Positions 15,964-53,759 of a stretch of 64,000 nt of DNA are shown piece after piece. Every line of letters starts with the position of its first letter. Positions within the stretch are counted from its first letter, which is position 1. A program made the position numbers and the translations under genes. This stretch comes from Prorocentrum cordatum (Eukaryota): positions 434,001-498,000 of the forward strand of contig CAUYUJ010000203.1 in NCBI GenBank assembly GCA_963575745.1, in the 5' to 3' direction. The notes under the pieces were generated by a model that was not told the DNA's origin, made no database searches, and worked only from the letters and a program-made list of their open reading frames with translations.

Positions 15964-18035
15964 TTACGCACCGACTAACGTCACATCGAGTTCGGCAGCA
16001 GGGGCCTTCGCTTGCACGGCCACGTACGGCACGGACGAATGGTGCAGGAAGATGCGAACCTTACCGTCCTCGCAGCGTTTGTAGCCAAAGGTGTACTCGA
16101 CTTTGGACTTCTCTCCAGTTGTTGCGCAGGTGAAATAATAGTTGCCCATGGCGATGGCAATACTACTTTTGACTGCGACTTGGTGGTTGTCGTACACGCA
16201 ATCCGACCAGCCCTTGCCACCATTGATCGCAAAACCGCCGTCCTCAGCGTACCCATTATCGACAGCCTTGCAGCCGACGAAATAGGACATGGCCTCCTCG
16301 GCCTTGGGCCGGAACTGGTGCTGGGCAGCCTTGGTCGGCTTGAAAAGCACGTCGTACTTGCCGTAGGCGTAGAGCTCACCAGCTGCGGTAGCAGCGGCCT
16401 GGACGTAGTCGCCGTTCTCCTTGTAAATCTTCGAAATGCTTTTGATCGCGCCCGCCCATGCGTTCTGCACAGCGATCACATCTTCCCTGGTGACCGCTGC
16501 TGTGCTGGCCGCCATATTTGCCTTGGGGTCCGCTGCTTTACTGGAGACGGCGTATGGCACGGACGAATGGTGCAGGAAGATGCGCACCTTACCGTCGTCG
16601 CAGCGTTGGTAGCCAAAGGTGTACTCGACTTTGGATTTCTCTCCACTTGTTGCGCAGGTGAAATTCGCTGGCCCAACGGGCCAGAGGCGTGCTAAGATCT
16701 CCAGTAACTACTCAACAATATTTCTAGTTCGCGCGCGCGGGGCGGCCCCTGGGGGCCCCCGGACGAAAAGTACCCCGGCTGATCCCCGGCCGGATCCCGG
16801 GCGATCCCCAGGAGGGAGGCTATTCTTCGCCACCCCGTCGCGAGGATCGTGAACTCCGAGGGGGTGGCTGCAATCGAGTGCCCCCCCTCCCGCCCCAAGG
16901 GGCCCCCGAGAGCCCCCTAAGAGGTCCCAGGGGAGCCCAAGACGTCGCCAAGGAGCCCCAAGACGCTCCCAAGAAGCCCCCAAAAGGCCCCCAAGACGGC
17001 CCCAAGAGGCCCCAAATAGCGCTCCAGGGCCGGCGGAATGAGCAAAGCGATTGAATAATAGTTGCCCATGGCGATGGCGACATCGGTCTTGAGTGCGATC
17101 TGGTGGTTGTCGTACACGCAATCCGACCAGCCCTTGCCGCCGTTGATCGCAAAACCGCCGTCCTCAGCGTACCCTTTGTCGACAGCCTTGCAGCCGACGA
17201 AGTAGGACATGGCCTCCTCGGCCTTGGGCCGGAACTGGTGCTGGGCAGCCTTGGTCGGCTTGAAAAGCACGTCGTACTTGCCGTAGGCGTAGAGCTCACC
17301 AGCTGCGGTAGCAGCGGCCTGGACGTAGTCGCCGTTCTCCTTGTAAATCTTCGAAATGTTTTTGATCGCGCCCGCCCATGCGTTCTGCACAGCGATCACA
17401 TCTTCCCTGGTGACCGCTGCTGTGCTGGCCGCCATATTTGCTTTGGGGTCCGCTGCCTTACTGGAGGCGGTGAACGGCACGGACGAATGGTGCAAGAAGA
17501 TGCGAACCTTACCGTCATCGCAGCGTTGGTAGCCAAAGGTGTACTCGACTTTGGACTTCTCTCCAGTTGTTGCGCAGGTGAAATAATAGTTGCCCATGGC
17601 GATGGCGACATGACCATTGAGATCTATCTGGTGGTTGTCGTACACGCAATCTGACCAGCCCTTGCCACCATTGATCGCAAAACCGCCGTCCTCATCGTAC
17701 CCATTATCGACAGCCTTGCAGCCGACAAAATAGGACATGGCCTCCTCGGCCTTGGGCCGGAACTGGTGCTGAGCAGCCTTGGTCGGCTTGAAAAGCACGT
17801 CGTACTTACCGTAGGCGTAGAGCTCACCAGCTGCGGTAGCAGCGGCCTGGACGTAGTCGCCGTTCTCCTTGTAAATCTTCGAAATGCTTTTGATCGCGCC
17901 CGCCCATGCGTTCTGCACAGCGATCACATCTTCCCGAGTAACGTCGGCCCCCGCCGCCCCAACAACGTCGGCCCTCGCCGCTCCCACGACTTCCGTTGCC
18001 TGGGATTTCGGCGTGGACTTACACAGACCGAACAT
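15964..18035 (-). CDS. Three-repeat COG4337-like (NTF2-fold, iota-class) carbonic anhydrase-like protein; processed retrocopy interrupted by a 392-bp insert. Join 18035..17055 + 16662..15964 gives 559 aa; possibly a pseudogene
   Basis: Three near-identical domains with a 176-aa (528-bp) period: VTREDVIAVQNAWAGAI...LYAY...VLFKPTKA...FRP...AMSYFVG...EDGGFAI...AMGNYYF...KVEYTFGY...RIFLHHSSVP. The HHSS, LFKPT and AMGNY-x-F motifs are typical of the family. Domain 2 to domain 3 spacing is 920 = 528+392. No introns otherwise, and an SL lies 65 nt upstream of the ATG. Confidence 0.85.
16663..17054. mobile_element. 392-bp dispersed-repeat fragment inserted in CA domain 2
   Basis: Removing it restores MGNYY|FTCAT. 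AAT is duplicated at the junctions. The left part matches 53201-53320 and the right part is the CCCCAAGA-rich family. Confidence 0.8.
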
Positions 18036-18100
18036 GGCGAAAGCCCGGCTGGCGAGACAACACTAAACTGGTGGCGCGATATGCCTGCGTGTCAACCACA

Positions 18101-18115
18101 CTTGAGCAAAAATGG
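18101..18115 (-). other. Relic spliced leader in tandem with the full SL
   Basis: Reverse complement CCATTTTTGCTCAAG versus the 15-nt relic CCATTTTGGCTCAAG (1 mismatch), directly 3' of the full SL. Confidence 0.9.
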
Positions 18116-18137
18116 CTTGAGCCAAAATGGCTACGGA
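18116..18137 (-). other. Genomic copy of the dinoflagellate spliced leader (full 22-nt DinoSL)
   Basis: Reverse complement reads TCCGTAGCCATTTTGGCTCAAG, an exact match to the consensus. Confidence 0.95.
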
Positions 18138-18829: not shown

Positions 18830-19500
18830 AGCTTGACCCCTCCCCCTACCCCCTCCCCTGGGCCCGGGAGGGGGGGAGGAGGGGGGGGCGAACCGACAGA
18901 CTGCCCAAGATGGCCCCAAGAGGGCCATCGGCAGTCCAAGACGGCCTCCAAAATGGCCCAACATACCTCAGCGTCGCTCAAGATAGCCTCCGACATGCCT
19001 CCAAGGCGGCCCAAAGCAGCCCCCAAGGGGGTTCCGAGTGCCCGTTGAGCTTCCCAGGGCCCCCCCCAAAGAGGCCACAAACTACCCAAACCTTTGTATC
19101 AATCAAGGTGTGGTTGGGCTTCTCGCACGTTCGTTTCCGATGAGCCCTTTTGGGCCTCAAAATGACACCAAGATGGCTCAATAGAGGCCCACGAGGGCTC
19201 CAATACGGCCCCCAAAACGCCCAAGAGGCGCCCAAGAGCGGCCCAAGAGGCCCCCAAGAGGCGATATTGGAGCTCACGAGGAGGGGGCCTGACCTGATTC
19301 CCCCCACTTCTTGGTGCGATCTCCTCCAGGGTGGCCCCAAGCGAGCCCAAAGGGGCGCCCAACACCACAAGGGAGGCGACCAGCATCACCAGCGAGGCCC
19401 CCAAGCGGCCCCCCAAACGCCCCCACGAGAGACCAATGGGGGCTCCAAGAGGCTTCCCCGAGGCATCACAAACGCCCCCAGAGGCCGCAAGGACCACCAA
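18830..19500. repeat. CCCCAAGA-rich dispersed repeat family; other copies at about 16900-17030, 32030-32400, 48940-49350 (reverse), 50420-50680 and 53330-53710
   Basis: Recurrent GGCCCCAAGA(C/G/T)GG units and a shared CCCTCCCCCTACCCCCTCCCC motif at about 18838 and 32041. Confidence 0.75.
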
Positions 19501-20559
19501 GACCTCTCCTCCTCCTCCTCCTCCTCCTCCTCCTCCTCCTCCTCCTCCTCTCCTCCTCCTCCTCCTCCTCCTCCTCCTCCTCCTCCCTCCTCCTCTCCTC
19601 CTCCTCCTCCTCCTCCTCCTCCTCCTCCTCCTACCCTTCCTCCTCCTCCTCCTCCTCCTCCTCCTCCCCTCCTCCTCCTCCTCCTCCTCCTCCTCCTCCC
19701 CCCTCTCCTCCTCCTCCTCATCCTCCTGTACTGTGCTCAATGGAAGCGGCCGTCGATGCCAACCGCCCCAAACAACAACACACGCTCCTAGTAACATGTG
19801 ACTACGGAGCGGGCCGCACACATCCAAACCTTGCAAGAAGCTGGGCAGGGCCCCAACATTCTTCCCACAAGCCTGGGAAACAAGCTGCCTGCTCATTGTC
19901 TTCAGCTTGCCGGACCTGGACCCCATCTATTGGCCGACCTGATCAAGGCCAACAAGTCAAATGGAGACGGGGGTCCATGTCCTGAAACAGTCCAACCTGC
20001 ATGCGGCTTCCCCAAAGACGGGAAAACTCCTCGCAGAAATCTGGACCTCTGCTGCCTGAGGTCCTTAGTCCGGGGCGTGCTCTGACACTTGGCCGCCCAG
20101 GAAAAGACCCCAGACCAGGCATATCCACCACACTTCAAGCAGCAGGTCACCCACCCACTCCCACCAGCCCCCCCGCCGTCCCTGACGACGACCTTTGCTT
20201 TGCAAAGGTTGTGGCCCTGCAGTCTGGGCAGGAGGGTGGTTTCGCTAAGCACCTCCCCAGGTGCATCATCGGGCGCGTCAGACAAAATGGGCACCTTGAA
20301 ATCGATGCGCGGCGCCCACCGTCGACGCCCAAACTCGGAAAGAATATTCATCTGCCTGACAGCTGCACGCTTTGATGGCCTAGATTGGGTGGAATTCGGC
20401 GAATCACAATCCACCGCAACGTGCCCAGGGAAACCAGACGAATCCACCCAACCCCTCGCGGCCATAAAAGCATCTTGCATGCTGCCCCACCTGAGCAGCT
20501 CTTTCTGGTGCTCAATCAAGCGGGAACGAAGCTCAAGAGACTGCTCAGGCAACGGGTGG

Positions 20560-21060
20560 AACGCAGCTCCTAGCCTGGCACATCTGTCCGCGTGCTTATT
20601 GCCGAGGCGCCGTGCCCCCGAGAATCTACAATTCAAGACATCCGAGGCCGTCGCATGGCTTTTGACCTTGGAAGCAGGCAAACCATTTTCAAAAACATGT
20701 CAAACCTTGGTCCAGAGGTGCGCCCGAGGATTCTGGGAAGAGCAGCTGCTGGCACTGTCCCAGACACAACCAAAGGCCCCCCCGGCAACCCGTTGAATAC
20801 GCGTTGCCGGAAAATGGTGCAACAAGCTCTGACGCCACTTTGTAGGCGTAGTCCTCGCCATCTCTAGCCTGCTGCCACGGGGCATCTTCCCAGGGCACAG
20901 GCCCATCGGCAGCAGAAATCACATCTCCAAGTTCGTTAGTTTGGACCAGACTCCAGCCAGCCCTGCGGGTTTCAACGCGCTGAAGGTTAATCGCCGAACC
21001 GTCGGTAAAAATTCTACCACTCAGCCTACCAGAGGCTGGCCTGTTAAACCACACCACTTT
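20560..21060 (-). pseudogene. RNase H domain remnant of the LINE
   Basis: IFTDGSA, RRAGWSLV, QARDGEDYA, KVKSHAT...LGNKHADRCARLGA (the GNxxADxxA helix). Confidence 0.78.
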
Positions 21061-21899
21061 ACAGGAGGAACGAGCAAGAGGAGGGGGAACCAGCTCACGA
21101 GGATGAGGGAGCACCCCAGCAGCATATTTCTCAAGATCCCGCCCCCAGTCCTTTACTCGTCTCGCCGCCTTGGCACAGGCAGCAGAGAGGCATTGACGTC
21201 TGTCTCCGTCGAAGGCCTCACACTCGAACCCCCAATGTTCAAAGTGCCCCTGCCAGCCAGGCACAGCGGGCAGAGGTCGTTCTCGGCCAGCCCGTGATCC
21301 TTGAGGCGAGCCTGAGTCCAGGAACCTAGAGCAAACGCATTTCTCAGACGCGCTTTGCGGTGGGGTCCCCAGACCTGGCTGCACCCATCTTTCAGAAGCT
21401 CTCTGAGCCCCTCCCACAGAACAGGCCTGCACCAAACTCCATTGAGCTCGGGCCTTAGGAGGAGAGCCCTTCTGTCAGCCCAGTGTCCTGCACCACGCTG
21501 CGCAAGACTGCTGACCATAACAGGCGATAGCGAAAGCTGGCCCACCACCTCACCCTGAGCGGCAGACACCTGTCTGGCCGAAGTAGGAGTCCAGCCTGGC
21601 TCGCGCAGCGCAAGTAAGTATACATGCGCTGGACAGGCACATGCATTCCACGGTCTTCGGACCGGCCAGAGTTCACCCACTGCACATTCGAACGCCAACT
21701 GCGCAACATCAAGCCCAGAAGAACCACCCCCAAAAGCCCGACAACACTGTAACACCACATTTGTATGGTAAAGAATGCATGGGCCCATTCGGGCTCCAAT
21801 AGGGTGAGCCCTGAGCCTGAATGAAGTGAGGGCCCCAGACTTGTCTTGGCTCAAACTGCGCGCGGCGGCAAGTCTCATCGAGCGCAACTGCTTGGGACT

Positions 21900-23050
21900 C
21901 AGACCTGCCACAGCAGAACCCCAGAGTCCTGCCGCTCGGGGTCCAGCGCACGGTGCATGGCCCACGAAGGCCCCCGCATTCTGCCATTCTTCAATCCCAG
22001 TAGCCTCCTGGATCGCTTGGAGGCCTTCAAGAGACGAGCACGTGCAGTGGGGTTTCGCCGAATACGTCTAGCAACAGCGTCACACCCCACTGACCGCACA
22101 ACATGCTGGGACTTTAAGCCGTACTTACTCCATAGCCCACGTGACGCAACGTCTAACTCCTTGCGCGATGCAATGCACTTGGTCTGTTTACCGGACAGCG
22201 CATGTCTGAGCTTCCCAAATCCCTCTTTCAACGTCACTCCGGCCCCTCCCAACTGCTCCCCCACAAACCGTACCGCACCGATGGGTCGCGTCGAAACATC
22301 ATCAATCACATTCCTGATCGTGAGAGAAGGGTATGCCGCAGTGAATGCCGAGAGTAATCTGTACAATACCACTCGCGCAAAAGATGTGGCCAAAACTGCA
22401 ACCTGCCAGGATCGCCCCTGCGGCGCGCAGAATTGCCGAGCACGCGCCCTGGAAAGTGAGAGCCCGAGCACCAACATACAACTGCATGGCAGCACGCGTC
22501 AGACAAAGACTGAGGCCAGTGGCATTGGCTTCCTAAAAAAAAAAAAAAAAAAAATCCGCGGTGCCAGACGCTCGTAAAACTTGTCCAGGTCGCTAAACAG
22601 GGTCCCAGAGTGGAGCCGCTTGACCCGTGCAAACGCACACAACATAGCATGGTTCCAACCAGCCCGGTCACACTCATCATCCCTTTCGCCCCCAAAGAAT
22701 CGAGCAGAGCGCGAGCGCTCCCAAGACCTGACCACCTGCTGACGGACTCTGGCCCAGACCCTTAGCACGCTAACAACAAGAGCCAGCGGGCGCAATCCAG
22801 CACCATCAGGTGTACCCAGGAACACTATGAGGGTGGCATACTTGCCGGGCAACTTGGGCCTCTTTTCCAACAGCATCAACAGGTCCGTCAACCGATCCAC
22901 GTACTCATCGGGCAACAATAACCAACTCCTAGGATTCATACAATCGGCTCCTAAACCAGTATCATGCTTGAACTTATTGGGAGCCCACCTAACTTGTTGC
23001 CTGTCGGGTCTCACAGGAGGAGGCCCTGCATCTGCTTCGGCATGCTGCAA
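21900..23050 (-). pseudogene. Non-LTR reverse transcriptase remnant
   Basis: TGLGAD (PGxD-like), IVFLGTPDGAGLRPLAL...RVWARVR (domains 1/2), FSDLDKFYE (DxxKAFD-like), QG-like segment, NVIDD (YADD-equivalent). A long A-run near 22535-22554 disrupts the frame. Confidence 0.82.
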
Positions 23051-23779
23051 CGGCAGGAGATCACACCGATGAGGGGGCCAATGCCTCCCCCATTAATCCT
23101 GAAGAGCAGAAATAGCACAATCACCTTGCAGCGCTCACCCTTCAAGAGAAAGAGGCCCCTGAGCAGGGGCCTTGACCTTGGAGTAGGCGCGCGCGGCCTT
23201 GCCGGCCTTGGCAGAAGCGGCGTCTTGGGCCCAGGCCTTCCAATCAGCCCATCTCTGGGAAGGCTTATCTTTTGAACTTGCTGTCGTAGCTCAGCTTGCA
23301 GGCTGGCCCCAGGTGCCCGATCTCGACCCCCTGGGAGTCCTCGATCTTCCTGATGAAACCAGGATGGCCATGGGGCTAGACACAGGAACTTGGCACCGAG
23401 ATTGTCCACGCTCAAGCCGAGAATGGAAGCGCGCAGCGCAGGCCGCATCGCAGAGCCCTCCAGGTCCCCCGCGCACTCTGCAGCCTAGACAAGATACGCA
23501 TCTAGAGCACGCCAAGCACGAAGTCGAGGATTACGGTGCGCAAGCCACTTTCCTTTCAAGACCGCGCCCTGGGAAACCTGCCTCCTCCTGAACACACCTC
23601 CACATCCTCCCCCGCGATATTATAGATGTGGCAGAGTTCGAGCTCGACGTTTTCAACCCATTGATCCCACGCCACTTCCAACTCCAGAGCGCCTGTGTCC
23701 CCCGTGTCCCAATCCCAGGGCAACTGCAGAGGCTCTCGAAGGCATCCAGCTTGAGGCTTAGTAGGGGACACTTTCCACT

Positions 23780-24530
23780 CAACTCTGGCTTGAACGGGCA
23801 GAGCTAGGCTGACCGCGCGTAGGGTAAGCTCCATAAGGGGAGTGCGGCGAGCAAGGTGCTTCACTCCAAACTGTAATAGCACTGACACAAGACGAAAGAC
23901 CAGCAGAGACAATAAAGTAGTCACACCCCTGTCCAGATCCCGCGGCGCACGTCTTTCTTCCCAGGAGAGATAACACAGGCCCCAAGCTTATGGCACCATT
24001 CAAATAATCCAGACGTCGCAGGATTCACATTAGCGTCACAGCCTATCACCCAGGGAAGTGCCAGAGAACCAAGATACTTCCCCAGGGCAGCCATCAGTGG
24101 AAGGCTGTCGCCCTGGACCTCCTGGGAGTGATGGAAAGACACAGGCGGCCAAATCAGACCACCAGATAAGACCCCATCGACATGTCTGGCCATGATGCTG
24201 CCACGGGTCTCAGGCAGCGTAGACCTCGTCCAGCTGCACCGTGCGCCGGCAGATGTGCGAGAGGCCCCCAGCCAATACACCTGCCGAAGTGGATAAAACA
24301 GACGTGTTTGTGCAGACTGCAGGGCAAACATCAGCATTGATACCTCGTGCTCGCAGGGGCCCAGCATATTGATTTATCACGTCCTGGTCAGAAGCCCTCG
24401 TCTTTTGCGCAGCCCAAAACTGTGGATTCGGACCTCGGGCCTCCTCCATTCTCCACTCCAAGAGAGGCTCCCAGGATGCCCAGGTATTCGCATTACAGGA
24501 AAAGAAAGCCCAATCAGTACGCTTTCCTTT
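23780..24530 (-). pseudogene. LINE apurinic-like (EEP) endonuclease remnant
   Basis: AFFSCNANTW (N-terminal motif), WAAQKTR (QE-like), SAGVL, PWVIGCDANV (GDxN motif), DYFIVS; several frameshifts. Confidence 0.72.
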
Positions 24531-25199
24531 AACTTTCCTGCCCCTGGAAGTCCCGCGAGGAGCAGCAGCGAGGACAGAGCCGGAAGCCTGCACGCAAGGC
24601 TCGCACCCCTGCCGCTGAGCAGCGGCAGCATCTCTAGGCCGAAGGTCAGGAACGGGGGCTTGGGCAGTTCGCAGTACTTCATCATCTGCATGAGGAGCTG
24701 CAACCCTGGCCTGACCAACGGGAAGAAGAACGCCGTCTTCTCGCTGAAGTGAGCGCTGATCAGCTTGACCAGACTCTTCAAGGCACGATTTCCTAACACC
24801 GGGTCGGAATAAACGTGGGAACGAGAGAGCACCTTCGGCGCTCGGAGACAGATCTGCAAACTCAGCACCAGTCGCTCGGTCTCCTCCAACAGGCTGCGCA
24901 GACAGCCCCCTCCCACCATGCGGGTAGACAACGCTGGCCGTGCTCGCAGGAGACCTGGCCGAAGGCGAAGACGAAGGTGGCATTGGCGCAGCCGCAGTGT
25001 GCCACCTCCTCCACGCATCATCAGGCGCAAACCTGCTGTCCTGAAACACTTTGTGTGGCTGCAGCGCAGGCATCGCAAAGCCCAGCTGCAGCCTGTCCAC
25101 ATCAATGACGTTGTGGTTCCAGAAATCCTCGTTGCCGAACTGCAAGACCTGCTTTGGAACTAACTCTGGAAAGAAGTAACAAAATGAGCATTGGCTCGA

Positions 25200-26308
25200 G
25201 CATTCAACCCGTGCTCTCTTCTGACGTATCAAGGCAAGCTGCTCACGGAGTGCTCGCTTAGCTGCTGCAATCTTGCGTGCTGCCTCCTCCTTGTTGGCAT
25301 CGCTGTCAGCCGCCCGTCTGGCCTCGAGAAGGGCCTCTCCTGCAGCAGCCAAGTTCTTCTCGTCTTGCTCGCCGGGGTCCATGTCATCGTCGGCCCCACC
25401 AGCAGGTCGAGTTTCGACATCAGCAACAGAAGGCCTTTTCCTGGCGCTGGGCTTCCTTGATGGAGACTGCCGGGGCCTCCAGCAACTGCCGCCAGGTGTC
25501 CAGGTGTTCGCCTCACCCTGCATATGCGCGCATCCTGCCGAACCAGTCCTTGAACTATTGGCTGGCCGAGGCGATCTGCGGGTCGCCCATCTTGAGGATA
25601 TGTTCTCCATCTTGTGCGAGCCCTTTAGCGTAGGCCTCACGTGCTTCTTGTTGGAGAAGATCTGCCTGCCTCCTGGCCTCGTCGAGGGCCATCTGAGCGT
25701 GCGCCAGCCTTTTGTCCAACTCTGCCTTGGCCTTCTCGATCTCAATCTTCTTCTCGACCAGATTGTTCTCGAGCGTGGCCACCGTTCCCTTCGCCTTCGA
25801 CAGGCGAGTGTTGATGGACATCTGCTGGACATGCAGCGGTTTGGCCTCTTGTAGCGCCTTCTGCAGCCGTTCGACTTGCGCATCTGCGAGGGCCCGATCA
25901 TCATCATGAGTCGAGAGACGGGCCGCCTTCTGCCAATGCGCAAACCTCTCCTTGATTTCCTTGACTTCCTTCCCGTCGTCCGACTCTGTGCGCCAGGGCG
26001 GCTTGGCTTCTCCAGCCTTGCCACCTTTCTACATCGCGTCGAGCCTCTTGAGGATGGAGCCCAGGGCATCTTGCAGCTGCGGGCCACCTTGGGCCCACTC
26101 CCCTCTTGGCGGTTGATGTTGAGCGCCTCCTGCCACGGCCTTCTCAAGTGCTTCCTTGGCTGCTTTAGACACCTCAAAGGGCACGGGGCAGCTGCAAGCA
26201 CACTTTATCCGAGGCGCCCAATTCCCTTTTCCTGTGACAACTCGCGCAACTCCACAATGGCTTCCGTGGACCGAGGAGAACGTCCTTCGAGCCAACACCA
26301 GTCGACAT
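25200..26308 (-). pseudogene. LINE ORF1 remnant: N-terminal RanBP2-like zinc finger plus coiled coil
   Basis: MSTGVG...WSCASCHRK/(frameshift)GNWAPRIKCAC; SINTRLSKAKGTVATLENNLVEKKIEIEKAKAELDKRLAHAQMALDEARRQ. The end is approximate. Confidence 0.6.
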
Positions 26309-26442
26309 CGCACGGCTAGCACAGGTGAGATGGGTCTGCTCCGACAGGAGGTCACCAAAAAAACAAGCAGCAACTCGCCTGGCCAAGGCAGACGAGGGGA
26401 ACGGTGGGGGCCGCTGCTCCCCCTTGCCAGAAAAGGCCAGGT

Positions 26443-26475
26443 CCTGTGCCAAAAAAGGCTACGGACTTGAGCCAA
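26443..26475 (-). other. Tandem SL-like sequences at the LINE 5' end
   Basis: Reverse complement: TTGGCTCAAG (exact last 10 nt of SL) followed by TCCGTAGCCTTTTTTGGCACAGG (SL with about 3 substitutions and 1 insertion). Abuts the assembly gap. Confidence 0.75.
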
Positions 26476-26476
26476 C

Positions 26477-26576
26477 NNNNNNNNNNNNNNNNNNNNNNNN
26501 NNNNNNNNNNNNNNNNNNNNNNNNNNNNNNNNNNNNNNNNNNNNNNNNNNNNNNNNNNNNNNNNNNNNNNNNNNNN
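26477..26576. other. Assembly gap (100 N)
   Basis: Run of N. Confidence 1.
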
Positions 26577-26929
26577 CTCCTCCCCCATCTTCCTCACCCT
26601 CGTTCCGCCTCGTTCTTCGTCCTCCTCCTCCTCCTCTTCATCCTCCTCCTCCTTCCCGTCCTCCTCCTCATCCTCCTCTTCCTCCTCCTCTTCCTCTTCC
26701 TCCTCCTCCGCCTCTTCACTCAGGACAACATGGTATCCTGCATGTCATACTCAACCCCTTTGGAGCATAATCGGTAACGACTGACCCAACCAGGGCTTCA
26801 TGCAACCTTCTCATTCCCATCCCCCTTCCCCTCTCTTCCCCCCTCCCCGTACCCCTCCTCCACCTCCCCCCCCTCCTCGTCCTTCGCGTCGTCGTCGTCG
26901 TCATCCTCCTCCCCCTCATCTTCCTGCTC

Positions 26930-27141
26930 ATCCTCATCATCACCATCATCACCTTCACCACCACCATCATCAGCATCATAATCAGTAGCATCATCAGCAT
27001 CATCGTCGTCATCAGCATCAACATCATCATCAACAACGTCGTCAGCATCATCGGCATCAACATGACCAACATCAACAGCATCATCATCATCAGCAGCATC
27101 ATCATCAGCAGCAGCATCATCAACATCATCAGCATCATCAG

Positions 27142-27210
<69 letters not shown>

Positions 27211-27301
27211 AAGCATCATCATCATCATCAGCATCATCATCATCAGCAGCAGCAGCAGCATCACCATCACCACCACCAACAACAACACAACCATCACCAC
27301 C

Positions 27302-27371
<70 letters not shown>

Positions 27372-27399
27372 GCATGATCATCACCACCACCACCACCAA

Positions 27400-27435
<36 letters not shown>

Positions 27436-27454
27436 CATCATCCTCATCATCCTC

Positions 27455-27524
<70 letters not shown>

Positions 27525-27690
27525 GCATCATCATCCGCCAAGAACCTCCGCCGCCGCCGCCTCCACCTCCGCCTCCGCCTCCGCCTCCTCCTCCTCCTCC
27601 TCCGCCTCCGCCTCCTTCTCCTCCTTCTCCTCCTGCTGCTGCTGCTCCTTCTCCTCCTCCGTTTCCTCTTCCTCCTCCTCCTGCTCCTCC
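26930..27690. repeat. (ATC)n followed by (CCT)n microsatellite
   Basis: Direct reading. Confidence 0.95.
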
Positions 27691-27712
27691 TCCGTAGCCA
27701 TTTTGGCTCAAA
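27691..27712 (+). other. Genomic DinoSL copy heading a second retroelement
   Basis: TCCGTAGCCATTTTGGCTCAAA, 21/22 match, directly after a (CCT)n tract. Confidence 0.92.
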
Positions 27713-30110
27713 CTGTCTTGCCCGCTGCGGCCGCGGCCCGCCTGCCATAGCCCCCGCGCCAGCGGCCCGCTGCTGCGGGCGCTCGCGATTCCCGAGCGCA
27801 GGTCGTGCTCACCAGCCTGGCACCGCCGCCTGCGCAAGTGCCGAGCGCGGGCGAGGCTCGCCCTCCGCTGCGCCTGAGCGCGCAGGCTCCTGGAAGGCCA
27901 TCACGGCGAACGTCTGCTGGGTGGCCTCCCTGGCGTTGACATGCCGCCCAGGCAGCCCCCGTGGAAGGCGGCGGCGTCTGGCCAGCCGCAGTGGGCGTGT
28001 GTGTGTGTGTGTGGCCACGCGGCTGCGCGGCTTCCTCACAAACTTCAGCACGCGAGACACACCGATGCTGGAAGTGCGGCCGCGGTCGAACTGGACGACT
28101 GCCGCCCCCTGAAGATGGAGCGAGCCCAGCGACTCAGCCTCTTGCCAGCTCGGCCTCCGCGAGCCGCCCTCGGAGTCGCCCTCGCTCTGGTGTTGCTGCT
28201 GCCCCTGGTCAGCGCCGCAGTGCTGCGGCCGCGCCCGTGGCGTGCAGCGCGCGCGCGGCAAGGCCTCTCGGCGCTCCAGCAGCTGCAGTACGCCGAGGAC
28301 CACCCGCTCATCCTCGCCGCCAAGCAGGAGCTGGCAGCTTTGGAGGCCGAGGAGCAGAGGGCCCAACCGCCCGAGGGGCTGCTCAGTGGCCTTCAGCAGC
28401 GCCTCGCCGACGCCAGGAGCGCGCTCGGCCAGAGGGAGGAGGAGCTGGCCGCCGCCGAGGCGAATGTCGTCAAGCTGCGCGGCCAGCAGGAGCAGCTTGC
28501 AGGTGACGCCAGCAAGCTCGAGGTCGAGGTCACTGCCGCCCAGCGCGCCGTGGCCGCCCCAGCTGCAGGCCCCAGCGGTGTGGACTTGGCGGGGATTGTG
28601 TCCAACCTGGTGGACTTGCAGGCCTTGCTCACGGCTGCCCCCGCCAGGGCCCACCAGGGCCAGGGCGTCGAGGTCCTGGAGGCGATCAACACGCAGGTGC
28701 TGGCGATGGGGGCAGCTTTCCCCGCTGCCCGCACCTGGCAGGCGGCAGCTCACGAGGGTCGGCGCCCCCGCGCTGGGGCCGGCTGCCCCCGCCGCCGCTG
28801 GAGGGCTCGCGCAGGCCCCCGCCCCGGCTGGAGGGGATCATCCAGGCGCCCTCCCCTGTGGCCGTGGCGCCCGCAGCCGCCGCGGTAGCAGCAGCAGCCC
28901 CAGCTGGTCCAGGAGGTGGTGCTTTTCCAAGCGCCGCTTTTCGCCCCCCAGGTGGGGGCCCAGCCGCGGCGGCATGGGGGGATGTCGGCATGTACTGCTC
29001 GTCGTGGCGCGCGCAGATCACACAAAAAGAATGCTACACTGGTTGCGAACAACGGCTCGTCATGGGGATCATGCCGTGAGTTCCTGGACAGGTGTGCTGA
29101 TCTTTCAAAGCTGTCGCAGCGCAAGAGCTTCGCATCGATGGGGATGAAGTTCAACGGGATGAAGGGTGGGCAGCGCGGGCAGGATGACATGCCATCATCT
29201 CGCCATACAGGCGCCTCGAGTCTGGGCGGCGTTCCGCTGGGGTTGGACTCTTCGCCGGGCGCCGCATTGGCATGACATACTTGCCAGGCTGCGCTGAAGC
29301 GCCTGGGTCTTTTGAGGTCGCCCCGAACTTCTGCGTCGCCTGCCACGCGGATTTCGGGGTCAAGGGCGGCCTCGTCTTGCTGGCGGCCTACATCGAGGTG
29401 AACAAGTGTGGCCTTGGCGCGAACACATCGCGCCTCTTCTCCATCGCGACTGCCTTGAGAGGGCGGAACAGGCGTTTCATCTTGACCGCCGATTTCAATT
29501 GTGCTCCCAGTCTGCTCAACGCTGACGGCTCCCTCGACTACATTCCTGCCCGGGTTGTTGCTCGGCCGTGGCGGGGCGGCGGCAATGTCGGCACGCGCAG
29601 GAGAGCAAATGGCAACTATTCTAACATTGCCTACTGGTTGGCGAGCTTGTCCATCGCAGGCTCGCTCTCGGCCCCGCAGCCTGTCCAAGGATGGCCTGCG
29701 GCGCCGCGCTACCCCATGCAGACGGCCTTGGCGGCAGATGCCAAGTCAGTCAAGTGTTTGATGCTCGCTGGGCCCAAGGCTTGCCCCAAGCAGGCTCCCG
29801 AGCACGAGGTCGAGGTCGTCGCCGATCATGACCACTTGGGCATCATCGAGCGAGACGCGGAGTTGGGTGGCAGCCCGTCCTCGGCGCAGGCGCAGGTTAG
29901 GTTGAATTACCTCTGCTCCGACTTTGTCGCCATTGCTGAGCAGGAGCTGGCGTTGCAGCATGGACTCGAGGATGACGAGTCTCGCTACGCAGGTCGAACT
30001 GCTAAGGCCACCTACTCTTGGCGGCAAGCTGGAGGACCGCCTGCTGGCCCTTACCCTGCTGCCCCTCCTGATGCCAGGATGGCCAGGCGCTTGGCCCAGG
30101 CCGCCAAGGA
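27691..30110 (+). mobile_element. 3'-truncated LINE-like element: SL, coiled-coil ORF1, degenerate APE endonuclease
   Basis: ORF 27941-28888 is coiled-coil (LAAKQELAALEAEEQRA...LQQRLADARSALGQREEELAAAEANVVKLRGQQEQL). It is followed by TLVANNGSSW, VLLAAYI, FILTADFN (GDFN), NIAYWL (IDY-like) and PRYPM (PHxPV-like). No RT is reached. Confidence 0.7.
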
Positions 30111-31232
30111 CGCACGCACTCGTACCCCACGCGCTCCTCGGCGTCGACCTCGGGGTCTGGCGGGACAGAGCCGTCGACGCTGAACAAGTCCTCGTCGTGC
30201 TGCCCCATGCCCTGCTCGACTTCGTGCACCGACGCGTGGGCCACCAGCTCGACCTGCCTGGCGTAGTACGGCACGACGGAGCCGTCGTCGTCCTCGGCCC
30301 CCGCGCAATCCACGTACACGTTGAGTCCAGCTCCTCCTTCACCATGCTGTGCTCCGCCCCCGCCGCCGCGGTGACGCAGAGCACGTCCTCGCCGTACTGC
30401 GCCTCGCCGCGCTGCTTCTCGTCGCGCACGGCCTTCTCTGCGAGGCGCCAGTCCGCCTCCAGCCCCTTAGACAAAGATCTCGGCCTCCGTCGCGGGGTCC
30501 TTCAGCTGCCACGTGCCTGGTGCTAACCAGCCCGTGGTCGCCGCCTCGCTCTCCACGTGGATCCTCCCGTACGGATCCTTTGTCACACACTCGGCGCCCG
30601 ACTCGACCGCCTTGGGGGCCGCGCTCTCCAGCACAGTCTCCTCCTCGAGCTCCAGGTGGAACGGCACCTTCTTGAAGGCCCCGCCGCAGACGCCCGCCTC
30701 GGAAGCCGATTGCTCACTCCTCCACGGGCTCCTCCAGGCGCGACACCTCCGAAGCGTTTTTTTCACGCCGAGCCGCGGGCCGCTCTGCGCCGCGCGGAGC
30801 TGCGCAGCACCAGCCCCCAACACGTCGATGCCCTCCGCCACCGCGTGAAGGGCCACGTTGCGCCTCAGGCGAGCCACCGCCGTCGGCTCCTCCCCGCGGA
30901 CGAGGGCGCCCAAAGCAGGGGCGGCCGCAGCCAAGCGCCTGCTCAGTTCGCCATCCGCGCCCGCAGCGCCCAGCGCCGCCGCGAGGTCCTCGTAGAGCCT
31001 GCGCCAGGCCCTCGCCTCGAGCGCCTGCCGGTGGACTGCGGCCTTAGCTGCCGCGGCCGCCGCCTTGCGCGCCTCCCGACGATCCCGGTTTGAGCGCCGC
31101 ACCGGCGGCGCGGCCAGCGGTTCCATGGCCGACCTCCCGTGAGCCACCATGCCAAGCCCCGCGCGCGCCCGTCGAGCCCGCGGCAATGGGCCAGGAAGGC
31201 ATGAGGCAAAATGGCTACTAAATGGCTACGGA
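30110..31232 (-). mobile_element. SL-headed, frameshifted, intronless ORF (retroposed transcript or ORF1 of a third retroelement), 3'-truncated
   Basis: SL-like head at 31200-31232. Ala-rich, GC3-rich ORF MEPLAAPPVRRSNRDRREARK...ARLRRNVALHAVAEG, continuing via frameshifts to ...DPEVDAEERVGYECV. Confidence 0.55.
31200..31232 (-). other. Partly duplicated SL-like sequence
   Basis: Reverse complement TCCGTAGCCATTT-A-GTAGCCATTTTGCCTCATG: the first 13 nt of SL, then a 17/19 match to SL nt 4-22. Confidence 0.8.
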
Positions 31233-31258
31233 TGATGATGATGTTGATGCTGATGATA

Positions 31259-31324
<66 letters not shown>

Positions 31325-31519
31325 TTGATGATGATGCTGCTGATGATGATGACGATGATGATGATCATCATGCTGCTGCGGATGATGCTGATGAGGATGA
31401 GGATGTGGATGATCATGATGATGATGGATGATGATGATGATGATAATCTGATGAGTACGATGATGACGATGATGATAATAATGCCGACGCTGCCGATGCT
31501 GATGCTGATGCTGATGATA

Positions 31520-31567
<48 letters not shown>

Positions 31568-31767
31568 GTCCGCTCCAGTGCACCGGCGCAGTGGAGAGTG
31601 GTTCTGAAGATGAAGATGATGATACTCGTGAAGATGATGACGATGATGATGGCGATGATGATGATGATGATGGTAATTATTATGATGATGTTGACGAGAT
31701 ATGGTGATGATGGTGATGATGATGACGATGATGATGATGATGATGGTGATGCTGATGATGATGATAG

Positions 31768-31823
<56 letters not shown>

Positions 31824-31957
31824 CTGGTGGTGGTGAAGAAGATGATAATGTTGACGATGATGGTGATGATGGTGATGATGATGATGGTGATCATGGTGAT
31901 GGTGATGTTGGAGATGATGATGGTGATGATGATGAAGCTGATGCTGCTGATGATGGT
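31231..31957. repeat. (GAT)n microsatellite
   Basis: Direct reading. Confidence 0.95.
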
Positions 31958-32882
31958 AATCCCACCAGCCCTCTGGGCGTCGGTGGTTTAGAGCGTTTCC
32001 TCTTCCACCCCTCCTTCTTCCCCTTCGGGGAGGGGTTTACCCCTCCCCCTACCCCCTCCCCACTGACCTGGACAGGGGGTTCCGCGGCGCGCTGGAGCGC
32101 CCAAGATCGACCCCTGGGAAGGCTAAAATTCGACACCCCTCACGAGGATCGTGGCTCCTGGGGGGGGGACTCTAATTAAGGAACCCCTCTTCTTTGATCG
32201 ATTTCCTCCACGATGGCCGCAAGAGGCCCCCAGGATGCCCCAAGAGGCCGCAGGATGGCCCCAAGATGACCCCAAGAGGCCCCCCAATAGGCCCCCAGGA
32301 GGCCCCCAAGAGACCCCCAAGAGGCCCCAAGAGACCCCCCAGAGGCACCCAAGGTGCTCCCAGAGGCCCCAAGATGGCCCCAAGAGGCCCCAAGAGGCCC
32401 CCACTCGCCTGGGCGTCGTTTCTGGACGGGCTGGTGGGAATACTTTTTTTTTACAGCCGCAGGCGGAAGCGCCAGCGGCGCAAGGTCGCGGGCCGTGGAC
32501 GCGACTAATTTCTGGTGGGGATACGCGAAGCGTCTAGAATTTTGATGATGCTGAAGATGATGATGATGCCGATGCTGCTGATGATGATGGTGATGACACT
32601 GACGATTGCAATACATAACCATGACGATGTCGATGACGATGCTGCTAATGAGGAATATGATGACGATTATGAATCGCATTGGTGGTCATGGTCACTCACG
32701 GTGACGATGTGCTCACGCTGCTCGGAGGGAATGTGATGGGTGGGTGTGAGGACTCCGCGGGGGGGTCTACAGAAAGCAAGAAGTTGGCTTAGGACGCGGG
32801 GAATGTGGTGACTATTCTGGGAAATACGATGAAGGGGACGACGCATAAACCAAACATGAGGATAAAGCGATAGAACCATGCG

Positions 32883-46917: not shown

Positions 46918-48611
46918 CTCGGCGACGGGGGGCGCCAGCGGCGGGCGCGGGAGGGGGGCGGGAGGAGGAGGGGGGGGGAAGAGGAGGTAGGGTGGAGAGA
47001 GACCCAGAGGTCCAACGCATCGAAAACGTTTCGTCGTAGTTTTCGGCCTCTGGAGGCCCTCGCCAGCTCCGGGACCGCCAAGAGACGGCGCGGGATGGAA
47101 AGTTGGCCCTGGGGAGTGGGTCGGGACAGCCAGGACCCCGCATTGAGAAAATCAAGACGCCGCATGTATGGGGAGAGAGGAGGTGTGAGAGTGAGATGGA
47201 GGGAGAATGCGGCAGGATCGTGTCGTGACGACCCTAGCATTGGCCCCTGACACCGCGTGGATCGTTCCACCTTGACCGCTCGCCAGATCGTCCCATTTGG
47301 GCCGATTCTGTGACGGTGGCGGCGCTCAACCTTGAACGCCCGCGGCGGGGTCTCTGGCGCGTCGACACGGCGCGAACCTGCCGTGCAGGAAGATGGAGGA
47401 GAAGGCGGGTCTACATGTGCCTGTGCGTGCGGGCGGGCGTGTGCGCGTGCGCGCGTCTCGCTGTCGGTCGGCCTGCTCTGCGCCGCGCCGCTGCGCGCGT
47501 GGCCGCGACGGAACGCCAAAGCAAGTGCGCATGCGCGTGCGCGCGCTATCGCGGCGCTCTCCGCTAATGACATCAATCTCAAGACGCTTCCGATAGGTCA
47601 ACCGCTGATCAAACATGTCACTACCGAGAGTACTCATCTGACTGTAGGAGGATGGAGGAGAAGGCGGACGGGAGAGGAGCCGAGAGGAGGTGGGGGACAA
47701 TATGCCGTAGTCCAGGTTCGGAGTTAAGAGGGGGAGGGGAGTGGCGGGGAGGTGGGAGGGCGGGCAAGCAAGGGCGAGAGCGATGGATGCTCTGGAACAC
47801 CAACACCGACCGCCACGGAAACTCGGGCTCTCTTCGCTTCGCGGTGCTGACGCGGTAGTCTCTGGTTCGCCTCTGCTCCGCTCCGCCTCTGGTCCTGTCG
47901 TCAACGATGCTCGTGCGATGCTGCATCGTAGGCAATTTGGCCCAAAGAGCCCCTGGGGGGCGAAACGCGTACAGTCAACCCGCATCACGAAGATGCGCGG
48001 TAAGGATGCAGGGGCCTTGGAAGGCCACGTCGACACTTTGCAGGCGGGGCGCGGCCAGCGAAAGCGGCCGAGGAGGGGCCGAAGGAGTAGGATGCAGAGG
48101 TACCCTTGGGAAGGTTGCCCATCCTTACGCGGGCCGACTGTCGCCTCCTCTGCGCTTCGCCCGAGACTCGATCCGAAAAAACACGGGATCTTCTGCATGC
48201 CCGTGCACTTCCACGGGGGGGAGGACGGCGGGAGAGGGACTCCGGGGCCCTCCAGGTCTGCCTGGGTGGCCCCCGGGCGCCGCTGTCCCTCGGGGTGCGC
48301 ACGGTCGGCCGGAGGGGATCGGCAGCTTGGGGATCGTCTTCGGCACGCCCGTTTGCAGTCGGCCCGTATCATGAGGATGAGCCAAAAAGAATGGAAGAGC
48401 TTCGGACGCCCATGTCGAAGCTGTTCGAGAGGGGTGCGGCCAACGAAAGTGGCAAAGGATAGGCCGAGGAGGCAAGGACAAAATGGCACCCTCGGAAAAG
48501 TTGCCCAATCTTACCATGCGGGTCGACTGTACCTCCACAGTGGGAGAGAGGGCGGGTAAGGGCAGGAAATCGAAAAGGGCCGCCGCGGCGGGGTCGCGGA
48601 GCGTCGCGGGC

Positions 48612-48653: not shown

Positions 48654-49364
48654 CTCTACGCGGCCCGAAAGGGGAGGGGCAGTCCGAGGATCTCTCTGCT
48701 CATCCTGCGTCCTCTTCCCCCCCGTTGTCGACGTCCTCCTCCTCCTCCTTCTCCTCCTCCTCCTCCTCCGCCTCCTCCTCCTTCTCCTCCCCCTCCTCCT
48801 CCTCCCCCATCCTTCTCCTCCTCCTCTCATTCACGCTTCCGCCCCCTTCCTTCGTCGTTCACTGTTTCCCCAGCAGAAATGACCAGGAAAGGCAGATCGT
48901 GAAATCCGCTGTCGCCCAGGACGGCTATCCTCCTGGGACCCCTTGGGGGCCGTTTGGAAAGCCTTGTCGGGGCCTCTTCTGGGCCGCTTGGGTGCCTCTT
49001 GGGGCTTGTTCGGGGCCGTTTTGGGGCTCTCTTGGGCCGTCTCGGGCGCCTCTTGGGCCGTCTTGGAGCCCTCTTGGGAAGTCGTGCGGGCCTCTGGCCA
49101 ACTTGGGGCGGTTTCGGGGGCGTCGTGGGCCGTTTTGGAGCGTCGGGAAGCCCAAAAGTCGCACGTGCTAAAAACGCACGCGTTCCAAAAAGAATGTGAC
49201 GGTGTTGGCCTCTTGGGGCCGTCTTGGGAGGCTACTTGGGGCTCACTTGGGGCGTCTGGGAAGCATCTTGGGCCGTCCTGGGGCCAACTGTGGCGCCTTG
49301 GAGTCCTGTTGGCCCGTGTGGAGGCCCTTTGGGCCGCCTTAGGGCCTCCAGGGGTACTCCTATA

Positions 49365-53133: not shown

Positions 53134-53759
53134 CTCGGCGCGGCGAGGGGGGGGGGGAGGGGAAGGGGGAGGGCTCGTGTAAAAGGGGCCCAGGGACACA
53201 GAATTTCGCTGCCCCAACGGGCCAGAGGCGCGCTAAGATCTCTGGCAACGGGTTAACCACCTTTCTAATTCGCGCGCGCGTGGCGGCCCCTGGGGACCCC
53301 TGGACGAGAAGTACCCCGACCGGTCTGACTCAGGCGCCCCAGAGCCCTCCTAGAGGGTCCCAAGAGTCCCCAAGAAGGTCCAAAAGGGCTCCGAGTCGCC
53401 GACCGATCGGTCCGAGACGCCCAAAATAGTTTCCAGACGGCCGCAGACGCCCCCAAGACGCCCAAAGAGGCCTCGAAGAAGCGTCTCAAGAGGGCCCCAG
53501 GAGGCAAAACCATAGATTTCCCATCGGTTATTGAAAGATTTTGGCGGTCTCCTCTTTTCTGCTTTCCAACGCTCCAAGACGGCCCAAGAGGTTCCCGAGA
53601 CCGCCCCAAGACGGCCCAAGAAGCCTCCAAGAGGGCCCCAAGACGGCCCAAGATGGCCCCAAGACAGCCCAACAGGCGCCCAAGATGGCCCAAGAGAGCC
53701 CAAGCCGACAGAACTACCACGCCCGGGGAGGGCTCTCAGAATTTCTGGGGGGGTAAAAA

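Follow-up and report, generated by a model that had tools for sequence, protein, structure and literature searches.

Spliced-leader sequences at the 5′ ends of putative LINEs and neighbouring retrocopies in Prorocentrum cordatum

Introduction

Retroposons of the SLACS, CRE and NeSL type use the spliced-leader (SL) RNA gene as their insertion target and carry a restriction-like endonuclease, while long interspersed elements (LINEs) that target microsatellites are known in the R1 clade. We describe here a stretch of Prorocentrum cordatum DNA (assembly GCA_963575745.1, contig CAUYUJ010000203.1, positions 434,001 to 498,000; the 64-kb window, whose own numbering is used below) in which two LINE-like elements, designated A and B, and a retrocopy of a host gene, designated C, each begin with sequence of the dinoflagellate spliced leader (DinoSL). 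A is probably a dead, full-length copy of a multicopy LINE family and B belongs to a second lineage, and their SLs were most likely acquired from trans-spliced LINE RNA that was reverse-transcribed to its 5′ end.

The SLACS, CRE and NeSL elements resemble A and B in being physically associated with the SL. The difference is that A and B carry a complete SL exon at their own 5′ end, with no intron, and show homology to an endonuclease of the apurinic/apyrimidinic type (APE). With the microsatellite-targeting LINEs, A shares the presence of the same purine-rich trinucleotide repeat on both sides and a 3′ end in a repeat instead of poly(A); B and C, in contrast, are preceded by other repeat types.

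The closest described phenomenon is that of the SL-relict retrogenes, or 'recycled cDNAs', of dinoflagellates (Song et al. 2017, PMC5585692; Slamovits and Keeling 2008, as cited there). Thousands of SL-tagged retrogenes are present per dinoflagellate genome, and the source of the enzyme and the route of expression are still debated (PMC5585692, PMC12014239). In the sections of Song et al. drawn on here, the AG within DinoSL is discussed as a potential acceptor for another round of trans-splicing, the TTT(T/G) motif of DinoSL is proposed as a basal promoter, and the Gene Ontology (GO) term 'RNA-dependent DNA replication' is found to be enriched among SL-relict genes (PMC5585692). SL-tagged reverse transcriptase (RT) genes have therefore already been counted, though not described as elements; in those sections they serve as evidence for the driver of retroposition and not as SL-headed elements. 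The SL-relict retrogenes are similar to A, B, C and a fourth head at 18.1 kb of the window in having a genomic DinoSL at the 5′ end in the orientation of the copy and in being intronless; a further common point is the occurrence of tandem SLs after repeated rounds. They differ from A, in which (i) an autonomous LINE, with an ORF1 and with APE, RT and RNase H, would be the source of the copied RNA, (ii) a multicopy family has the SL as the boundary of its unit, (iii) the older SL is not truncated at the AG, and (iv) the tail is (GAG)n instead of poly(A).

Two further groups of LINEs are relevant. De Mendoza et al. (2018) described LINEs of Symbiodiniaceae (SymbioLINE-Dnmt and others) with conserved 5′ and 3′ untranslated regions (UTRs) and target-site duplications; like A, these combine Exo_endo_phos, RVT_1 and RNase_H domains with an upstream ORF1 and have no poly(A) tail (PMC5890265). 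The ORF1 of SymbioLINE-Dnmt is a DNMT, whereas the open reading frames (ORFs) of A and the homologues of its ORF1 gave no DNA_methylase match, and the term 'spliced leader' does not occur in the available text of that paper. The L1Tc/ingi elements of trypanosomatids are, like A and B, APE-type LINEs in a host that trans-splices its messages; their first 77 nt (Pr77) form an internal promoter that yields unspliced transcripts, and they avoid the SL, whereas A and B start with it (PMC1874656, PMC8190864). Full-text literature searches, within the texts accessible to them, yielded no explicit report that dinoflagellate LINEs begin with DinoSL; the GO enrichment of Song et al. comes nearest, and the supplementary tables of that paper may list such genes.

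Results and Discussion

DinoSL sites in the window

DinoSL sequence is present in the window at 26444-26476 (minus strand), 27691-27712 (plus) and 31200-31232 (minus), and at a fourth site, 18101-18136 (minus). The window is GC-rich (0.49-0.67 in 2-kb bins). A scan with the 21-mer CCGTAGCCATTTTGGCTCAAG, allowing up to 3 mismatches, matched 18116-18136 (minus; 0 mismatches) and 27692-27712 (plus; 1 mismatch), with no match in 100 shuffled sequences. The 15-nt relic form, allowing up to 2 mismatches, gave 4 matches, one of them at 31200-31214 (minus), compared with a shuffle mean of 0.09; four matches were reached in none of the 100 shuffles. SL sequences in the window far exceed chance, and these scans bear out the claim of an earlier interpretation of this DNA, made from its letters alone (the sequence-only reading), that three adjacent elements start with DinoSL. 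A degenerate SL-like 21-mer at 47926-47946 (plus), with 5 mismatches, lies within the range of the chance controls.

In SL genes the SL exon is followed by the GT of the intron start, according to the part of PMC12584245 that deals with them. No GT donor follows any SL of the window (heads A, B, C and 18.1 kb), and an Rfam scan of the window returned 0 matches and no RNA gene.

Structure of element A

Element A (19.7-26.5 kb, minus strand) appears, from its sequence and homologies, to be a decayed but full-length LINE copy. Its layout on the minus strand is SL, SL, a 135-nt 5′ UTR, ORF1, ORF2 (APE, RT, RNase H), a 3′ UTR of ~170 nt, and (GAG)n. The individual features, starting at the element's 5′ end, are as follows:

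26477-26576, no strand: 100-N assembly gap, immediately preceding head A (sequence)
26466-26476, minus: newer, canonical DinoSL, its ten 3′ bases (sequence), the remaining 12 bases lying inside the assembly gap
26444-26465, minus: older, full-length 22-nt DinoSL variant TCCGTAGCCTTTTTTGGCACAG (sequence, mismatch count)
26309-26443, minus: 5′ UTR, 135 nt, from the older SL to the ATG of ORF1 (sequence; P0171 alignment)
25203-26308, minus: putative ORF1, in which a coiled coil follows a cysteine-rich N-terminus, interrupted by one TAG and by two frame changes (P0170 and P0171 homology)
23610-24515, minus: APE-type (Exo_endo_phos) endonuclease region, frameshifted (P0009 residues 21-321; Pfam Exo_endo_phos at P0009 residues 50-234)
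22067-23254, minus: reverse transcriptase region, with one in-frame TGA and a 20-T run (phmmer, tblastn, profile match)
20487-21024, minus: RNase H region (tblastn of P0036 and P0017; Pfam RNase_H in both relatives)
19728-19932, minus: end of ORF2 homology (19932), stop at 19902, 3′ UTR (tblastn, sequence)
19506-19727, no strand: (GAG)n on the strand of A, ~75 units, no poly(A) (sequence)

P0169, which covers the sequence from the SL up to the coiled coil, has two relatives, P0170 (66% identity, E 7e-71) and P0171 (48%, E 4e-62), both of which are free-standing ORF1-like proteins from short ENA contigs. In tblastn searches on A, residues 7-285 of P0171 aligned with 26290-25462 and residues 215-285 of P0170 with 25406-25203. 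Residues 7-27 of P0171 match 26290-26228, and by this alignment its Met1 coincides with the ATG at 26308-26306, located 135 nt downstream of the older SL. The conserved position of Met1 supports the view that in A the SL marks where a complete LINE unit begins, in line with the sequence-only reading, which took the SL to be the 5′ end of these elements. P0001 (24210-26204), searched against proteins of 365-1162 aa, yielded no homologue.

The RT frame of A (P0002, 21902-23092, minus, read through one TGA) was compared by phmmer with a database of 1.84 billion representatives. This revealed 1028 proteins at E≤1e-3, including 237 at E≤1e-10 and 6 at E≤1e-30 (best 5.6e-49, 36% identity). When 17 long relatives were scanned with Pfam at E≤0.001, RVT_1 was detected in 13/17, Exo_endo_phos in 9/17 and RNase_H in 4/17, and 3/17 gave nothing; part of these domain scores lie below Pfam's own cut-off. 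In the relatives Exo_endo_phos is N-terminal of the RT and RNase_H C-terminal, and no restriction-like endonuclease was found C-terminal of the RT. Alignment of 61 relatives of at least 900 aa onto the window (tblastn) produced 164 matches, all of them at 19.5-24.5 kb on the minus strand or at 29.0-30.0 kb on the plus strand; residues 21-1532 of P0009 are collinear with 24515-19932 (minus), across at least 7 frame changes. The RNase H region is matched by P0036 residues 1391-1459 (E 1.4e-7) and 1509-1571 (E 0.004), and by P0017 residues 741-838 (E 4e-5). With a profile of 25 family members, including the RT of A, matches were obtained to R2 proteins of solved structure (E 4.6e-9) as well as to ORF2p of human LINE-1 (E 3e-5); P0009 alone gave 0 matches against PDB sequences.

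Judged through its relatives, A would encode an RT of the non-long-terminal-repeat type, and both A and B probably carry an APE-type endonuclease region, since they show homology to Exo_endo_phos, which lies upstream of the RT in the relatives. The sequence-only reading had assigned APE-type LINE domains to two elements and a full APE-RT-RNase H set to one of them. By way of the relatives this stands, with the full set in A and APE in B; direct Pfam scans detected no RT, endonuclease (EEP) or RNase H in 30 ORFs, in the 7 best candidates at E≤10 or in the joined RT frame.

The copy itself is dead, with two frame changes and a TAG in ORF1, and at least 7 frame changes, a TGA and the 20-T run in ORF2. 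This run is located on the minus strand at 22525-22563, inside the RT frame. The closest relatives of the RT (P0013, P0087, P0153 and P0154; 80-82% identity, 68-170 aa) bear the EukProt label of a green alga, Pyramimonas sp. CCMP1952; such a label is odd for a DinoSL-headed element, and the label or the culture may therefore be mixed. No translated-SL peptides were found in the fetched relatives.

The tandem head of element A and its multicopy family

Head A reads, on the minus strand, TTGGCTCAAG (26475-26466) and then TCCGTAGCCTTTTTTGGCACAG (26465-26444). In an ungapped comparison 6 positions of the older SL mismatch, a level that by itself is expected by chance (0-5 matches per window in Markov controls); it is made credible by its 8/8 start, its TTTTGGC core and its place right behind a canonical SL.

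Contigs of four public DNA runs (X1-X4) were aligned on 19728-26476, with 22525-22563 skipped as a repeat. X1 provided 250 contigs on A, 16 of them at ≥99% identity, 19 at 95-99%, 58 at 90-95% and 157 below 90%. With 234 of the 250 below 99% identity, A is a member of a multicopy family. X2, a metagenome from another study, provided 23 contigs, X3 none and X4 one. Within the window, A, B and C are not repeated at the DNA level. A further candidate, a head of ~90 nt common to unrelated downstream sequence, was dropped: apart from small indels, the loose ends at 26387 and 26394 look like the sequence of the window itself, and thus belong to diverged copies.

The loose end with the best support lies past 26475, where five X1 contigs read AATGGCTACGGA(C) and one X2 contig reads AATGGCTACGGAC, in full agreement (median length 11-13 nt), and base 26476 of the window is in conflict with the aligned contigs. 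The extension and the window's CTTGAGCCAA together make up the canonical 22-nt TCCGTAGCCATTTTGGCTCAAG, so that head A consists of two full 22-nt leaders in tandem. All six contigs stop at the first base of the upstream SL or one base past it; judging from how unitigs break, they would represent copies that are alike up to the SL and diverge upstream of it.

The 15-nt AG-truncated relic CCATTTTGGCTCAAG was not encountered as an older SL at the LINE heads (that of A has 22 nt, and B has a single SL). With a complete older SL in A, the tandem was not produced via the SL-internal AG, and the acceptor of this SL, if any, lay just upstream of it. On the strand of A the flank is AG-rich (GGA)n. The tandem may be due either to an AG immediately upstream of the integrated older SL or to a jump of the RT onto a second SL-bearing RNA. 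The sequence-only reading had made the SL-internal AG the acceptor of the next round, and had found the tandem and relic SLs at two heads to fit repeated cycles. Neither A, with its full 22-nt older SL, nor C, whose head fits an 11-nt slippage duplication, displays this pattern; a canonical SL with the 15-nt relic as its older SL occurs only at the non-LINE head at 18101-18136 (relic at 18101-18115).

Element B

Element B lies on the plus strand and diverges from A. Its recognizable parts are:

27691-27712, plus: single DinoSL TCCGTAGCCATTTTGGCTCAAA, joined directly to (CCT)n (21-mer scan, 20/21)
27713-29112, plus: leader and coiled-coil-rich open frame (27878-29275, one stop) (sequence)
29113-29973, plus: APE-type endonuclease region (P0048 residues 327-590 on 29140-29973, E 7e-11; P0028, E 4.9e-7; P0019, E 5.7e-6)

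A nearly continuous frame, with two stops and one frame change, extends over 27878-30183. B shows APE homology only, with no RT after it, and its 3′ end lies somewhere between 29973 and 30440. For the region 27713-29112, there was no tblastn match from the LINE or ORF1 relatives, and an Atlas search of the upstream ORF gave no usable match. B is best explained as a 3′-truncated copy of a second LINE lineage, beginning with a single SL.

The pyrimidine-rich (CCT)n followed by TCCGTAG resembles a 3′ splice site, which we record as an observation only. Within 29973-30668, B (plus) and C (minus), both 5′-complete and 3′-truncated, are joined tail to tail, and neither poly(A) nor a repeat nor any other recognizable junction lies between them.

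Origin of the SL heads

The reading that we favour is that the SLs of A, a dead full-length member of a multicopy family, and of B, from a second lineage, probably derive from LINE RNA that was trans-spliced and then copied to its 5′ end. For A there is good support for this core step, in which the messages of the LINE undergo trans-splicing and are copied back together with the SL; for B it is plausible. The two belong to different lineages situated within 12 kb, and each is SL-started. We propose that SLs head these copies because the LINE pre-mRNA received the leader by trans-splicing, as most dinoflagellate nuclear messages do. Target-primed reverse transcription would then run to the very 5′ end of this RNA, so that the leader would be written into the new DNA copy, and the lineage of A would have passed through two rounds of SL addition. 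The SL-tagged host-gene retrocopies nearby (C and the 18.1-kb head) may be by-products of the same kind of machinery. In this respect the sequence-only reading, which had the LINEs trans-spliced and re-integrated with their SL, is upheld to the degree given above for each element; its additional assumptions, that the RNA came from host read-through transcription and that the element would do without a promoter, stay suppositions.

Several points weigh against this reading. Trans-splicing of the LINE RNA is inferred from DNA sequence and not observed, and the equation of the contig ends with divergence of the copies depends on an inference from unitig breaking. A single full-length copy of A was seen whole, its head abutting an assembly gap; X1 may be the source sample of the window, so that independent support for head A comes down to the single X2 contig. 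The older SL of A also retains its full length, in departure from the canonical relic, which is truncated at the AG. Because the direct Pfam scans of the window ORFs were empty, the domain calls are transitive, via relatives. The 1.4-kb stretch of B between SL and APE has no known relative, and B could be composite. Finally, no SL-headed LINE of the family of A from another organism was found in SL scans of two sequence collections, viral_contigs and metagenome_contigs. The exact-SL scan of viral_contigs gave 119 loci with 233 sites, 136 of them unique and 112 with at least 3 kb downstream, at which tblastn of LINE proteins of at least 300 aa produced 0 matches on either strand (0/136 sites); this collection is without the LINE family altogether, and the null is therefore uninformative there. 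The same scan of metagenome_contigs gave at least 126 loci and at least 135 unique sites (22 with at least 2 kb downstream among those listed), and LINE-family homology was detected at 0/135 of the listed sites, an underpowered comparison; a search for related loci in this collection based on P0009 found no relative.

The most durable alternative is a template jump, in which the RT leapt from the 5′ end of a LINE RNA with one SL or none onto an SL-bearing RNA or a free SL exon. Non-LTR reverse transcriptases are capable of end-to-end template jumping, and both SLs of head A are full 22-nt units placed end to end, with no AG-truncated relic, as such a jump would leave them. The same SL-SL head is, however, present in at least 5 variant X1 contigs, which indicates that it was inherited through RNA and not made anew at each insertion, and B, C and the 18.1-kb head also start with SLs, as expected for trans-spliced messages. 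We therefore regard a jump as an unlikely source of the heads. A LINE copy could also have landed, by chance or secondarily, just downstream of an SL belonging to an older host retrocopy; SL-headed host retrocopies are common here (C, the 18.1-kb head) and the stretch of B between its SL and the APE region lacks a LINE relative, but the conserved ORF1 start of A lies 135 nt below the SL, the paralogous contigs share head A and end at the SL, and A and B, of different lineages within 12 kb, are both SL-started. Such a juxtaposition is improbable on the whole: it is unlikely for A and possible for B.

Site-specific insertion into SL-RNA genes, in the manner of SLACS, CRE and NeSL, would make the SL a piece of target DNA; apart from the bare association of a retroposon with SL sequence nothing favours it, the SLs being complete exons in the orientation of the element and at its 5′ end, and it is rejected, with hardly any probability left to it, because there is no exon-GT junction, Rfam found no RNA gene, the 3′ flank of A is (GAG)n with no SL intron, and the endonuclease homology is APE-type. 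A disrupted SL-RNA gene as the source of the SL, which would have spoken for target-site insertion, is ruled out by the absence of GT, the lack of an Rfam match and the (GAG)n 3′ flank of A. It is likewise very improbable that the heads are mis-joins of the assembly at microsatellites and the gap, for although head A touches the 100-N gap, base 26476 disagrees with the contigs, and B and C are 3′-truncated and tail to tail without a recognizable junction, head A is reproduced by contigs from two studies and P. cordatum paralogues of C bear the SL at the same junction.

The finding that LINE DNA copies open with the 22-base leader of host mRNAs suggests that the LINE RNA was processed like an ordinary host message before it was copied back. 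If the trans-splicing origin is correct, (i) an autonomous LINE family with the SL as its unit boundary ties the retroposition machinery to its products, (ii) these LINEs pass through the mRNA pathway of host genes, in contrast to the trypanosomatid LINEs with their internal promoter and unspliced transcripts, and (iii) SL-primed long-read cDNA could catalogue active LINEs in very large dinoflagellate genomes. The SL-headed LINEs would extend the known phenomenon of SL retrocopies. As a bolder and rather doubtful extension, the LINE lineage might have lost its own promoter; host SL trans-splicing alone would then fix the 5′ end of its transposition-competent RNA, and the SL would enter each full-length daughter copy. 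Together with a purine- or pyrimidine-rich microsatellite, the SL might rebuild an acceptor or a TTTT core; copies in long unidirectional units might be expressed automatically, and the elements might supply the machinery for adjacent SL-tagged retrogenes. A self-sustaining, promoter-free cycle is hypothetical and is not supported, and the LINE heads lack the internal-AG signature proposed for it.

Element C and the head at 18.1 kb

The two remaining SL heads of the window belong to minus-strand sequences:

31200-31232, minus: DinoSL of element C, internally duplicated over 11 nt and abutting (ATC)n (sequence, relic scan)
30668-31199, minus: element C, retrocopy from a function-unassigned gene family; frame open to 30002 with one TAA (homology to P0160)
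18101-18136, minus: fourth head, a perfect SL and the canonical 15-nt relic, CCATTTTTGCTCAAG, outside the interval 19730-31232 (21-mer and relic scans)

Head C reads CC GTAGCCATTTA GTAGCCATTTT GCCTCATG, which is most simply read as one SL with an 11-nt internal duplication and two substitutions, rather than as the canonical relic. The protein P0159 (C, 30005-31225, minus, one TAA) shares 48% identity over 264 residues with P0160, named 'unnamed protein product, partial [Prorocentrum cordatum]'; all 9 of the 9 members of the cluster of P0160 bear that organism name. When the DNA upstream of three 'partial' paralogue models was read through, it gave ..IRSHFGS / CLPRARARG in two and ..FRNHFGS / CLPRARARG in one (the stroke marks the junction), RSHFGS being the translated SL. 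C reads SSHFAS / CLPGP at this SL junction, and the upstream residues vary between the paralogues. LINE domains were found in C neither with Pfam nor with tblastn of the relatives. Since the SL junction is common to C and the P. cordatum paralogues, C is a member of a family of SL-headed retrocopies and not a LINE, and the inclusion of this third element among the non-LTR retroelements in the sequence-only reading has to be abandoned.

The SL at 18101-18136 heads an open frame (16917-18062) with tandem units of ~528 bp and ~95% identity (16026-17935, minus); no Pfam family was detected in it.

Microsatellites and satellites

Long trinucleotide arrays are very dense in the window, where ~22 occur, of the types (CCT)n, (ATC)n, (TGA)n and (ACT)n and up to 1.1 kb long, as well as several longer-period satellites. 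The arrays near heads A, B and C are:

26620-27693, no strand: (TCC)n, (TCA)n and (CCT)n, together forming the block that separates the diverging heads A and B (sequence)
31231-31955, no strand: (GAT)n array upstream of head C (sequence)

Heads B and C lie at a distance of 0 bp from trinucleotide arrays, and the 3′ end of A borders on (CTC)n at 19506-19727, in accordance with the description of the SL-headed elements as clustered in microsatellites. By our own arithmetic, the chance of two of the four heads lying at an array edge is ~1e-4 or less. The 3′ end of A runs into (GAG)n and its 5′ flank is the gap, followed by a like repeat type; neither a definable target-site duplication nor poly(A) is present. 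The (GAG)n at 19506-19727 is either the 3′ tail of A or part of a split target microsatellite, and the occurrence of the same purine-rich repeat type on both sides of A fits insertion into, or tailing with, that repeat.

A satellite with a period of 11 or 21 nt (GGCCCCAAGAGGCCCCCAAGA-like) recurs at 16893-17013, 19207-19263, 32215-32403, 49013-49095 and 53570-53704; two of these occurrences are situated ~250 bp further out than the microsatellites flanking A and C.

SL-bearing stretches in IMG/VR

The 119 viral_contigs loci with exact DinoSL are stretches of IMG/VR (L001-L119; e.g. L024, L059-L061), mostly from bins named as giant-virus metagenome-assembled genomes, with several SLs per contig, some of them spaced 50 bp apart. 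The pattern points to dinoflagellate-like DNA within the bins or to arrays of SL genes.

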